DNA of 64,000 nt, taken from NCBI GenBank assembly GCA_027490755.1, contig JAIXXL010000024.1, positions 20,227 through 84,226 on the forward strand. The letters run 5' to 3'. The notes under the pieces were generated by a model. It was not told where the DNA came from, made no database searches, and saw only the letters and a program-made list of their open reading frames with translations. This stretch comes from Betaproteobacteria bacterium (lineage in GTDB: Bacteria; Pseudomonadota; Gammaproteobacteria; Burkholderiales; UBA3065). Below, piece after piece: positions 37,592 to 41,938 of this stretch. The first letter of the stretch is position 1. Each line of letters opens with the position of its first letter. Both the position numbers and the translations under genes were made by a program.

Positions 37592-38131
37592 ATGCATATC
37601 AATCACTTTTATCGCAATCTGCTAGCTGTGGCGGGCTCTGGCTTTGCTTATTGGATCGTCGGCGAATTCCAGATGCTGCTTCCCGCTGAGTTTGCAAGCG
37701 GCGTCAGCGCGCCGTATCTACCAGCAGGTGTACGACTGATCGCGGCGGTCGTCTGCGGGCTGTATGGTTGTTTAGGTGTGTTCCTTGCCAGCCTGGTGCT
37801 GGCGCCCCAGACCTTCCCCGATGCGGCGATGCCGGTGTTGCTGGCGATTGCCGGCGCGAGCGCCTTCGTGCCGCTGGTCGCGCTTGCAGCCGTGCGGCGT
37901 GCGTTCGGCATCGGCGACCAGCTGACTGAATTGTCATTCCGGTTGGTGCTTCTGCTTGTCGTCCTGCAGTCGGTGCTCTCGCCCATCGCGCACCAGCTTC
38001 TGTATCACCTCACCGGGTTGGCGCCAGCCGGGGCGCTGCATCTGCTCGTCATGATCTCCGGCGATCTGGTCGGCACCATGCTGGTGCTGCTGGTGGTCGC
38101 GGCTGCCTGGGGTTGGCTTCGCCGGAGCTGA
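37592..38131 (+). CDS. Stand-alone MASE1-like integral membrane protein
   Basis: About five hydrophobic segments, YLPAGVRL...GCLGVFLAS, GDLVG; AT-richer 5' part. Confidence 0.65.
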   Translation: MHINHFYRNLLAVAGSGFAYWIVGEFQMLLPAEFASGVSAPYLPAGVRLIAAVVCGLYGCLGVFLASLVLAPQTFPDAAMPVLLAIAGASAFVPLVALAAVRRAFGIGDQLTELSFRLVLLLVVLQSVLSPIAHQLLYHLTGLAPAGALHLLVMISGDLVGTMLVLLVVAAAWGWLRRS

Positions 38132-38233
38132 GCCCTCGCTCCAGCGCGAAAATTGCGCGTTGCAATCAAATTCCTGCGTCTGTAGGAAAGCGCACCGGGG
38201 GGGCGGTGGTGGTTGCGGGGGCAATATGAGCTG

Positions 38234-38545
38234 TTACTTTGCGGGCTTCGTGGCCTTGTGCTCTCGCGACCGCGCGCGATCCCGCTCGGGCTTCTCATTC
38301 CGCTCATTCCGCCGGCCAGCGCCCTCGCGATCGTCGCGCTCCTTGGCATCGTGTCCCGGGGCGTGCTTTTTCTCCGACTTCATGCGGTGTCGCTGCTCCG
38401 CGCGTTCCTGCCCGCGCAGTTCGCCACCACGGTTGCTGTTCTCAGCTGAGGACCCGCGACGGTCCTGCCGGTCGTCTGCAAACGCCGTCGTCGGGCTGGC
38501 GGCGGCAACCAACAGGGTGATCAGGGTAGGCAACGTAAGGCGCAT
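38234..38545 (-). CDS. Small secreted, highly charged hypothetical protein
   Basis: RBS ggag, signal peptide MRLTLPTLITLLVAAASPTTAFA, R/E/D/K-rich mature part. Confidence 0.6.
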   Translation of the reverse strand: MRLTLPTLITLLVAAASPTTAFADDRQDRRGSSAENSNRGGELRGQERAEQRHRMKSEKKHAPGHDAKERDDREGAGRRNERNEKPERDRARSREHKATKPAK

Positions 38546-38625
38546 GACGTTTCTCCAGTAGATTGATCGAGGGGCAGCGATCTGATCGGGAGGCGATGGC
38601 CGGACGCTTTTGGCGTGGATTGCGC

Positions 38626-38712
38626 TGGTGCCGGGAGGGGGACTCGAACCCCCACACCCTTTCGGGCGGCGGATTTTGAATCCGCTGCGTCTACCGATTC
38701 CGCCATCCCGGC
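38626..38712 (-). tRNA. tRNA-Leu (CAA)
   Basis: 87 nt with long variable arm; anticodon stem-loop GCGGA-TTCAAAA-TCCGC; GTTCGA T-loop; CCA end. Confidence 0.97.
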
Positions 38713-38814
38713 TGGAGGGGAGCGCGGATTATCGTTGGGTGGCCATCGTCGCTGCAAGCGAAAAAGCCGGACCGGGCGCAGCCTTCCGTCCGCGCCGGTC
38801 CGGTAGGGGGAAAC

Positions 38815-39621
38815 TCAACGTGCCCTTGGCATGGCTGGTGCGGATGCTGCGATCGCGCAGACCACCTCGGGCATCACGCCCATCACGCGGATCAGCGTCG
38901 CGGCTGCGCCGGTGGGCACGCGCTTGCCCTGCTCCCAATTGCGCAGGGTGTGCAGTGGCACGCCAAAACGGCGTGCGAAATCCACCTGAGTCAGCCCGCT
39001 GCGCAGGCGCACGCTGCGCACCGCAGACGCGGCGGTGTCGCAGCCGTTGGCGGTGGCCGACAGGCCCACGTGGTTGGCGTGCCGGGAGGGCGGCGTCAGC
39101 AGTGCGGCGCCGCTGCCTGTGTGTTCCGGCATCCACTCGCCATCGACTATGAAAGCGCGCAGGCGGCGGCCGGCATCCGGGTCCTCGCCAGTGAAGGCGT
39201 ACTCGATACGGGCGAAGCGGTCTGCATCCAGTTGAGTGCTGGCCATCCACCAACCCGGAAAGTCACGTTTCAGCGCGGTGCGCACCCGCAACACCGTGAA
39301 GCCGGAGTGGCGGGAGTCGCGGCCGATCGCGGCCAATGCATCGCCGATACGCTCTGCGGTGCCCTCTAACACCAGCAGCACCTCGTCGCCTTGCCGAGCG
39401 AGCACGCCGGTGATGTTGCGCTTTCGGTTCTCGCGCCGTGCCTGTGACAGCAGGTCGACCCAACCGTCGCCGCCATGGGCCATGCGGCTGCGGCACACGG
39501 CCTGCACCAACTGGCCTGCGGTCAGGGCCGGCAGTGGGGACGGCTGAGCGGCCTTGCGCGGGATGCCCCTGGTGGGTGCGTCCTGAGTCCGCTTGCTGCT
39601 GGTTCGGGTGTCGGTCTTCAT
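38815..39621 (-). CDS. Degenerate BLUF domain fused to XRE-family helix-turn-helix
   Basis: [31 protein letters not shown] (BLUF); [33 protein letters not shown] (HTH_3). Confidence 0.82.
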
Positions 39622-39711
39622 GGCAAAGAATCTAGCGACCGGCTGCGCCCAACGCTTTGCCGCAGGTCAAGCTTCGCCGGCGCCGCTCGCGGTGGGTTAG
39701 AGTCGCGCCCC

Positions 39712-41938
<2,227 letters not shown>

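Follow-up and report, generated by a model that had tools for sequence, protein, structure and literature searches.

Which signal, if any, can a BLUF domain still pass on when the residues that run its photochemistry have been replaced and the domain itself has been joined to a DNA-binding module? This question is raised by a gene on the minus strand of a 64,000-nucleotide stretch from Betaproteobacteria bacterium (GenBank assembly GCA_027490755.1, contig JAIXXL010000024.1, positions 20,227 to 84,226 of the forward strand), which is called the window throughout and to which all coordinates refer unless another contig is named. To our knowledge, BLUF domains are known as photoreceptors, either stand-alone or linked to enzymes, which reach DNA only via partner proteins. 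Their canonical photocycle is a proton-coupled electron transfer from a Tyr via a Gln to the flavin and is accompanied by a red shift of about 10 nm. The gene described here represents a natural, selected fusion of a BLUF-like domain with an XRE-family helix-turn-helix (HTH), in which both photochemistry-defining residues as well as a third pocket residue are replaced and the other flavin-site positions are kept. It is best read as a one-component regulator in which a BLUF-derived sensor is joined to the HTH, with DNA binding being predicted.

Domain architecture and replaced pocket residues

The open reading frame (ORF) comprises the following parts:

38815..39621, minus strand: whole gene, encoding a putative BLUF-like/XRE one-component regulator of 268 aa (P0001); ORF translation, Pfam, 17 orthologous clusters at 70-91% identity; stop codon included
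39514..39621, minus strand: residues 1-36, Pro/Arg/Lys-rich variable N-terminal tail with a conserved MKT start; family alignment, dN/dS 0.34-1.0
39232..39513, minus strand: residues 37-130, BLUF-like core; Pfam, hhalign 99.9%, PDB matches, dN/dS 0.06-0.15
39124..39231, minus strand: residues 131-166, C-terminal cap as in some short BLUF proteins; aligned with P0021 and a paralogue from the same genome, dN/dS 0.05-0.19
39031..39123, minus strand: residues 167-197, variable linker; family alignment, dN/dS 0.14-1.05
38851..39030, minus strand: residues 198-257, XRE-family HTH of the NadS/HigA2/MqsA-C-terminal type; Pfam, NCBIfam, PDB 2ppx and 5jaa, dN/dS 0.06-0.15

Pfam assigns residues 54-127 to the BLUF family (PF04940; E = 6.7e-16, 58.6 bits at a cut-off of 25), covering profile positions 19-92 of 92, and the same family lies above its cut-off in five genomes of the genus with 61-64 bits. 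In hhalign, the profile of the 17-member family aligns with 13 canonical BLUFs over the whole domain (99.9% probability, E = 1.2e-31, 136 columns, residues 34-169), and among solved structures the N-terminal part matched AppA, PixD/Slr1694, Tll0078, OaPAC, BlrB and BlrP1. At the C-terminal end, residues 201-252 exceed the cut-offs of both HTH_31 (32 bits, cut-off 27) and HTH_3 (27.8 bits, cut-off 23), and the most similar solved structures are those of the small XRE proteins Atu1735 (2ppx) and Vibrio HigA2 (5jaa). With both domains above their Pfam cut-offs, the layout put forward in the original prediction, which was made from the DNA letters alone, is borne out: a BLUF domain at the N-terminus and an XRE HTH at the C-terminus reside in a single, one-component chain.

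Each of the two parts corresponds to a complete small protein. Residues 37-166, i.e., core plus cap, equal a complete short BLUF protein, and the cap, which in the BLUF-XRE family ends in an invariant stretch of 10 residues, is common to P0021, the best relative outside the family, and to a canonical BLUF paralogue encoded in the same genome. Residues ~171-259 equal a complete small XRE protein; the closest database relatives of this part are proteins of 90-120 aa with 50-60% identity, and the alignment with HigA2 begins at residue 176, the conserved linker residues R180 and N183 pairing with the N-terminal part of HigA2. The gene looks like a fusion of two small genes, one coding for a short BLUF protein and one for a small XRE protein.

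The resemblance of the HTH to HigA2, MqsA and NadS raises the alternative of a type II antitoxin (HigA/MqsA-like) carrying an extra domain, and XRE proteins of the NadS, HigA2, MqsA-C-terminal and Atu1735 kind are indeed the best PDB and NCBIfam matches of residues 171-259. However, the NCBIfam models nearest to the HTH (NadS, MqsA-family, PRK10072) are all far under cut-off, and the same applies to the antitoxin models scored (NadS 31.3 vs. 60, MqsA family 30.9 vs. 61.8, HipB 15.3 vs. 79). PADLOC gave weak or generic HTH matches only. Furthermore, the ORF list of both flanks holds no toxin-like ORF adjoining the gene and no small ORF partner, the gene being followed by a terminator-like hairpin and a tRNA-Leu gene and preceded by the divergent queA, and the locus is a chromosomal one whose synteny is kept in 4/4 related loci. 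Compared with small XRE proteins, the BLUF-XRE protein thus lacks a toxin partner, stays below the curated cut-offs and bears a sensor module of 165 residues in place of the short toxin-binding N-terminus, which renders an antitoxin function highly improbable. Among the PHROGs, generic HTH matches and one BLUF family were found; this family, phrog_19899 (function not known), matches residues 55-129 of the BLUF part with E = 7.7e-10, so that BLUF-like proteins also occur in phage genomes. The Atlas feature search returned one match (score 0.82), a BLUF cluster, which is a lead only.

Within the BLUF-like core, five sites are of particular relevance:

39493..39495, minus strand: Cys43 codon (TGC), position of the photoactive Tyr (PixD Tyr8 / AppA Tyr21); alignments; in the family 13 Cys, 1 Ser, 3 not covered
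39427..39429, minus strand: Asn65 codon, kept position of the flavin C4=O hydrogen-bond partner (PixD Asn32 / AppA Asn45); family-invariant, 112/112 other BLUFs; role as given in part of PMC5899715
39379..39381, minus strand: Val81 codon (GTG), site of a pocket Phe that is conserved in BLUFs (PixD chain position 48); Val in 16/16 of the family, Phe in 110/112 other BLUFs
39373..39375, minus strand: Leu83 codon (CTG), position of the photoactive Gln (PixD Gln50 / AppA Gln63); family 16/16 Leu, other BLUFs 112/112 Gln
39244..39252, minus strand: Trp124-Trp125-Met126, kept Trp-x-Met signalling strand; W124 and M126 invariant, 17/17 in the family

The Pfam match begins past strand beta1, the seat of the Tyr, and the Tyr position was checked by three other comparisons. 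The hhalign alignment pairs the family's 'avCRS' with 'vYrS' and its 'VLLvLEG' with 'FmQvLEG'. A gapless BLASTP alignment with the canonical short BLUF of the same genome (143 residues, 35% identity) places C43 opposite Y and L83 opposite Q, and identical pairings recur in the gapless BLASTP alignment with P0021 (133 residues, 41% identity). In addition, a gapless alignment to PixD chain 3mzi_A equates its positions 31, 32, 48 and 50 with E64, N65, V81 and L83, and its positions 69, 71, 72, 91 and 93 with D102, R104, H105, W124 and M126. Hence, Cys (TGC) at the AppA Tyr21 position and Leu (CTG) at the AppA Gln63 position, each a single base away from the canonical codon (TAC and CAG, respectively), were correctly recognized at the outset, and so was the retention of the Asn45, Trp104 and Met106 equivalents, since N65, W124 and M126 pair with PixD 32, 91 and 93.

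In a test made without preselecting positions, 19 core columns proved to have a conservation of 80% or more among 12 non-redundant canonical BLUFs. The BLUF-XRE family keeps 16 of these columns and changes exactly three, namely Tyr to Cys43, Phe to Val81 and Gln to Leu83. At the same columns, a redundant set of 112 single-domain BLUF proteins, gathered with a canonical profile, displays Tyr in 112/112, Phe in 110/112 and Gln in 112/112 cases. The third replacement, Phe to Val81, goes beyond the original prediction, as do the short-BLUF cap and the promoter context treated below. Retained parts of the BLUF signature are Asn65, Asp102-x-Arg104-His105 and Trp124-x-Met126. By homology with BLUF structures, residues 43, 81 and 83 are presumably located on strands beta1 and beta3, where they face the flavin pocket under the ring. 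Overall, the family has in common with short BLUFs (PixD/Slr1694, Tll0078, BlrB, P0021, own-genome paralogue) the domain in its full length, including beta1 and the cap (35-41% identity without gaps for P0021 and the own-genome paralogue), as well as the Asn, Asp-x-Arg-His and Trp-x-Met positions, whereas it differs from them by the replaced Tyr, Phe and Gln, the fused HTH, a Glu at position 64 and an extra invariant Trp125, which is present in 17/17 family members and variable in other BLUFs.

A word-indexed search yielded 17 clusters of the BLUF-XRE protein from several sources, with 70-91% identity. Position 43 is Cys in 13 of the 14 clusters covering it and Ser in the remaining one (P0016, a single 2.1-kb contig), 3/17 being without coverage, and Val81 as well as Leu83 are present in 16/16 covering clusters. 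In this survey of homologues for their Tyr/Gln status, the orthologues thus do not keep Tyr and Gln. Nei-Gojobori dN/dS values, calculated by region for the genes of five species, amount to 0.06-0.15 in the BLUF core (at dS 0.6-1.3), 0.05-0.19 in the cap and 0.06-0.15 in the HTH, compared to 0.34-1.0 in the N-terminal tail and 0.14-1.05 in the linker. As the dN/dS of the core equals that of the HTH, the BLUF-like domain is as constrained as the DNA-binding domain. Cys43 is encoded by TGC in four species and by TGT in one (L010), Leu83 by CTG in 5/5 species, and the reading frame is intact in all five genes. A decaying allele or a sequencing error of an ordinary BLUF photoreceptor, as the single-base distance of both codons from the canonical ones might suggest, is refuted by the occurrence of the same residues in independent assemblies from several sources (13/14 Cys, 16/16 Leu) and by their maintenance in five species at the above dS and dN/dS with intact frames, leaving next to no credence for this explanation. 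The replacement of Tyr and Gln is a conserved, selected trait, neither error nor decay.

Promoter context

Two candidate elements were located upstream of the gene:

39629..39634, minus strand: TAGATT, candidate -10 box of a leaderless mRNA; identical in all eight orthologous upstream regions, 7 nt (in one locus 6 nt) before the ATG
39657..39670, minus strand: pseudo-palindrome TTGACCTGCGGCAA, candidate box of class II CRP/FNR type; with its centre 42.5 nt upstream of the ATG, TTGAY-N4-SGCAA in 8/8 loci

No Shine-Dalgarno sequence and no conserved -35 box were found in the eight orthologous upstream regions, and a simple sigma-70 scan of 38500-39900 gave no full promoter. The 14-nt pattern TTGAYCTGNSGCAA occurs at three sites in the genome versus none in the reversed control, with an estimated 0.1 sites or so expected by chance, and the other two sites are found upstream of an hsp20 gene and an FNR-like gene (G000:C48:99132-99145; G000:C48:102587-102600). 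The FNR-like regulator (P0270) is a CRP/FNR protein of 271 aa which scores 221 bits with the Fnr subfamily model at a cut-off of 228 and carries an N-terminal C-x2-C-x5-C motif. In 4/7 genomes of the genus, the box precedes the FNR-like gene. Its position before this gene is shared by G114, G002 and G243, and G063 has it in inverted form. A relaxed version of the motif reaches about three times the control in all seven genus genomes, and in the two genomes lacking the BLUF-XRE gene it counts 21-26 versus 4-8. Since the enrichment is thus also seen without the BLUF-XRE gene, the box is more probably a site of the FNR-like regulator. It was also considered whether TTGAY-N4-SGCAA could be the operator of the BLUF-XRE protein itself; this was rejected because the motif is equally frequent without the gene and also stands before the FNR-like gene. 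Likewise, the inverted repeat GGCAAAG/CTTTGCC was rejected as an operator, as it is not conserved in orthologues. For class II activation by FNR, the inverted repeat is placed near -41.5 relative to the transcription start. The TTGAYCTGNSGCAA box seems to be the form that the FNR box takes in this lineage, the right half-site reading GCAA, and taking the distances from the ATG as presumed start, we infer that the gene is leaderless and FNR-activated, i.e., expressed at low oxygen.

Transcription is weakly hinted at by contigs from two RNA libraries of one study, which span 504-615 nt of the BLUF-XRE gene at 90-97% identity, although DNA can occur in such libraries. On the side of queA, the hexamer TAGAGT is invariant 8 nt before the ATG and no Shine-Dalgarno sequence is seen (window 39698-39714, plus strand); in species without the BLUF-XRE gene, the sequence upstream of queA differs. 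The arrangement suggests that the BLUF-XRE gene and queA form back-to-back leaderless transcripts.

Possible functions of the BLUF-like domain

Consequences of the replaced residues can be estimated from laboratory mutants. In the parts of PMC5899715 used here, Tyr8, Asn32, Gln50 and Met93 are named as key residues of PixD, the Asn is described as hydrogen-bond partner of the flavin, mutation of the Tyr is stated to abolish the red shift and mutation of the Gln to abolish photoactivation, and the PixD variants Y8F and M93A are reported to be locked in the signalling state without light. An excerpt of PMC10799861 describes Tyr-to-Phe BLUF mutants as not photoactivatable, with a nearby Trp then donating an electron to the excited flavin, and AppA variants Y21F, Y21L and Q63L retain flavin spectra, which are blue-shifted, according to a section of a preprint (10.64898/2026.08.14.744829, citing Dragnea 2010 and Kraft 2003). 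Because Tyr and Gln, with these established roles, are both replaced, the canonical photocycle cannot run in the BLUF-XRE protein and the red shift is predicted to be absent. While the AppA variants and PixD Y8F are hit at the same two positions, they are single laboratory substitutions, in contrast to the BLUF-XRE family, in which a natural replacement of three residues (Cys, Val, Leu) is maintained by selection. Judged by the excerpts on these mutants, one would expect the flavin to stay bound and to absorb at blue-shifted wavelengths without forming a red-shifted state, Trp to serve as the alternative electron donor and the conformation to be 'locked'.

With a probability of roughly 45%, we favour the reading that the domain still binds a flavin, housed in an enlarged apolar pocket, and reports its redox state, or a non-canonical photochemistry, via the beta5 strand and the cap to the HTH. 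It is favoured because Asn, Asp-x-Arg-His and Trp-x-Met have been kept under strong selection. The sensor would stem from a short BLUF photoreceptor (core plus cap), a flexible linker joining it to an entire small XRE module of NadS/HigA2 type. Exchange of the three conserved pocket residues for smaller or apolar ones would give a roomier, more hydrophobic pocket with the flavin still held, and the input could be the redox state of this flavin or light by a non-canonical route, e.g., photoreduction from Trp124/Trp125. From the Trp-x-Met strand, the signal would pass through the cap and finally alter DNA binding by the HTH dimer. The monocistronic, probably leaderless gene would be turned on by an FNR-type regulator, and its product may take part in the low-oxygen/light network of an anoxygenic phototroph.

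A number of observations weigh against this reading. In its right half-site, the box found here has GCAA instead of the TCAA of the FNR consensus, and support for an FNR box consists of three sites in the own genome only versus none in the control. Among the upstream candidates, no operator for the BLUF-XRE protein was found. The gene is dispensable in the genus, 2/7 species being without it, and most columns are invariant inside this narrow family, so that the kept flavin-contact residues argue only weakly for a cofactor. The shape of the pocket and the direction in which residues 43, 81 and 83 point are predicted from homology with BLUF structures. Moreover, Glu64 sits beside the flavin-bonding Asn where Asn, Arg or Lys is usual and could disfavour flavin, and loss of the Gln would remove the proton relay which gives the neutral flavin radical in Tyr mutants (deduced from an excerpt of PMC10799861). 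Finally, the locked state of PixD Y8F, as described in part of PMC5899715, fits a constitutive, signal-blind domain equally well.

This last point leads to the alternative of a cofactor-less pseudo-BLUF, i.e., a module for dimerisation or scaffolding, fixed in its conformation, within a constitutive XRE regulator, the output of which would be set by the amount of protein made, for instance under FNR control. The three replaced residues belong to the most conserved BLUF positions (112/112, 110/112 and 112/112, see above), the signalling state is locked in PixD Y8F and M93A even in the dark (PMC5899715, in part), Glu64 lies beside the kept Asn, a second and more degenerate BLUF domain in the same genome implies that degenerate BLUFs are tolerated, and the conserved box in the promoter suggests that regulation takes place through expression. 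In contrast, 16/19 signature positions including the flavin-bonding Asn, Asp-x-Arg-His and Trp-x-Met are kept, and the degenerate domain of that other protein, a tandem BLUF protein, has also lost Trp and Met, unlike the BLUF-XRE protein. The core has a dN/dS as low as that of the HTH, though a structural role could also explain this, and the engineered AppA variants Y21F, Y21L and Q63L still carry flavin (section of preprint 10.64898/2026.08.14.744829). On balance, a domain devoid of cofactor is the main alternative, with a somewhat lower probability than the flavin reading.

In the absence of Tyr and Gln, Trp124/Trp125 would be the only quenchers of an excited flavin, or the flavin would reach the triplet state beside Cys43. 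A bolder version of the flavin reading, which we consider a long shot, hence sees a BLUF scaffold with swapped photochemistry, either photoreduction driven by Trp124/Trp125 or LOV-like cysteine-flavin chemistry at Cys43; the protein would then be the first natural BLUF-type transcription factor to be gated directly by light or redox state, and its synthesis would take place at low oxygen (FNR box) in a freshwater anoxygenic phototroph with a small genome. For LOV receptors without the adduct-forming Cys, the accessible part of PMC4682037 describes signalling by photoreduction to the neutral semiquinone; the BLUF-XRE protein, however, has a different fold and is also missing the proton-relaying Gln. 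EL222 and other LOV-HTH regulators, as covered by an excerpt of PMC4844311, are likewise one-component fusions of a flavin-sensor fold to an HTH, the flavin being presumed in the present case; unlike the BLUF-XRE protein, EL222 has a PAS/LOV fold and another HTH class and is photoactive. The suggestion of a Cys beside the flavin, already raised in the original prediction, has lost weight, as Ser occurs in 1/14 covering clusters and the side chain of Cys is much shorter than that of Tyr.

A pocket re-tooled for another ligand was weighed as well. Here, an enlarged apolar cavity would bind a derivative of flavin, a different planar heterocycle or a hydrophobic metabolite, giving a ligand-gated regulator. 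All three changes shrink or de-polarise side chains with the polar Asn being kept, and in a tree of 22 BLUF domains the family forms one group, with its sister group unresolved, and the long stem leading to the family measures ~1.2 substitutions per site and gives way to tight conservation, a pattern fitting a shift of function. However, no candidate ligand is indicated. The neighbours queA/tgt and tRNA-Leu are kept by descent in one genus and provide no evidence of a functional link. Asp-x-Arg-His, which in BLUF domains holds the rest of the cofactor, is also kept, and such a ligand-gated regulator is improbable.

In AppA-PpsR, BluF-BluR and PixD-PixE, a BLUF module likewise acts upstream of a DNA-binding output, and the host of AppA is a purple-type phototroph like the host of the BLUF-XRE protein (pufLM). 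In those systems, however, sensor and DNA binder are separate and the BLUF domain is photoactive (PMC3509220 and PMC5899715, both in part), whereas here both share one chain and the photochemical residues are gone. Light might nevertheless enter in trans, if the inactive BLUF-like domain paired with a photoactive short BLUF paralogue and the hetero-oligomer passed the light signal on to the HTH. In favour of such an arrangement, the nearest relatives are short BLUFs with the same cap, the one of the own genome aligning gapless at 35% identity with canonical Tyr and Gln, and BLUF proteins commonly act by protein-protein contacts, as exemplified by PixD-PixE and BluF-BluR in excerpts of PMC5899715 and PMC3509220. 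Co-occurrence is not clean, though: the cap-bearing canonical paralogue (at least 45% identity) is found in 4/5 genomes with the fusion, one copy containing an in-frame TGA, and in 1/2 without it, which makes light input in trans quite improbable. The TGA interrupts the copy in G114 (G114:C59:5494-5925) and may reflect a pseudogene or an assembly error; in G201 (82% complete), the paralogue was not found.

If a flavin is bound, the protein offers a natural experiment on a BLUF pocket without Tyr and Gln, with redox sensing, Trp-driven photoreduction and thiol chemistry as possible outcomes, and it would supply a compact starting point for optogenetic or redox-genetic one-component regulators. 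Should nothing be bound, it would be a clear case of a photoreceptor fold recruited as 'pseudo-sensor'. Either outcome helps to interpret the many uncharacterised BLUF-annotated genes in databases, within the narrow scope of one uncultured genus in which the gene is dispensable.

Distribution, paralogues and genomic neighbourhood

Database searches, considering the best 120-150 matches each, place the family by itself. An exhaustive search of 1.84 billion representatives gave 5786 matches at E <=0.001, with a single one at 1e-30, the family's own representative. In the profile search, 17 of the best 120 proteins are the BLUF-XRE family (304-417 bits), the next match has 123 bits, and the other 103 proteins are BLUF only. 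No BLUF plus HTH combination was seen in 14 matches of the BLUF part and 16 multi-stretch or longer matches of the HTH part scanned with Pfam, among the matches listed. Of 301 genomes sampled across the order, five contain the gene, all of one genus (5/7 species genomes, source genome G000 included), and no copy turned up in the 294 genomes from 141 other genera. The fusion is hence rare, being confined to one genus among the sampled genomes and representing the only such family among the matches listed, in agreement with the early notion that a BLUF domain fused to a DNA-binding domain is unusual. As far as the consulted portion of a 2014 survey goes (PMC4844311), 64% of bacterial BLUF proteins are short and 34% EAL-linked, and HTH fusions are listed for LOV only. 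In the literature searched, neither a BLUF-HTH fusion nor a natural Tyr-to-Cys or Gln-to-Leu BLUF is described. Architecture and pocket are both unreported, the parts, a BLUF domain and an XRE regulator, being of known kinds.

The source genome (2.06 Mb in an assembly 79% complete) contains pufL and pufM (G000:C48:158495-160165), and pufLM is present in 7/7 genomes of the genus. Genome sizes in the genus are only ~1.7-2.0 Mb, and the number of BLUF matches per genome ranges from 0 (G158, 88% complete) to 6. The genus is a small-genome freshwater lineage of anoxygenic phototrophs with a variable BLUF repertoire, and 20 sequencing-run rows contain part of the stretch, most of them labelled freshwater; X17, X19, X6 and X7 were the ones compared with it.

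Besides the fusion, the genome carries five further BLUF matches in four proteins and only one weak HTH paralogue (31% identity). An origin of the fusion from neighbouring genes was rejected, as the canonical paralogue is flanked by a rubrerythrin gene and ORFs without family, with no XRE gene present. The tandem protein mentioned above (324 aa, G000:C41, ~38.2-39.2 kb, minus strand) has two BLUF matches, the first domain being canonical. In its second domain, Cys occupies the Tyr position ('FRYVACAS') and Tyr the Gln position ('LLYYLEG'), with Trp and Met also lost; this domain sits on an extremely long tree branch, and P0038 is a relative elsewhere with the same motif.

Around the BLUF-XRE gene, the following features were annotated:

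38626..38712, minus strand: tRNA-Leu(CAA), conserved downstream neighbour; ARAGORN, Rfam; 4/4 orthologous loci
38770..38783, minus strand: terminator-like hairpin with T run, 32 nt past the stop codon; 2 such sites in 1.4 kb scanned versus 0.6 expected
39712..40773, plus strand: queA, divergent upstream neighbour, followed by tgt; Pfam Queuosine_synth 9.4e-126, TGT 4.5e-158; synteny 4/4

In 4/4 related loci, the gene lies between the divergent queA-tgt unit and tRNA-Leu(CAA), and a WYL regulator is found beyond the tRNA-Leu in those three of them that extend far enough. Rfam detected tRNA only at the locus. With 0.68-0.70, the GC content of the gene resembles that of its neighbours, i.e., the base composition is native. 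In the 2/7 species without the gene, queA is located about 50 nt from tRNA-Leu, so that presence and absence at the locus are real; the queA tree leaves the genus unresolved and does not determine whether the gene was gained or lost.

The region around tRNA-Leu is variable in the genus (window 37592-38545). A membrane-like ORF of 179 aa (37592-38131) and an Arg/Glu-rich ORF of 103 aa (38234-38545), both without Pfam family, occur in 2/4 and 1/4 related loci, respectively, and in G158 tRNA-Leu is directly followed by the WYL regulator. A locus syntenic with the window is also found in CAMDGF010000011.1, a MAG entry titled Klebsiella pneumoniae, in which queA, tgt and secD are 84-91% identical to those of the window; its species label is probably wrong.

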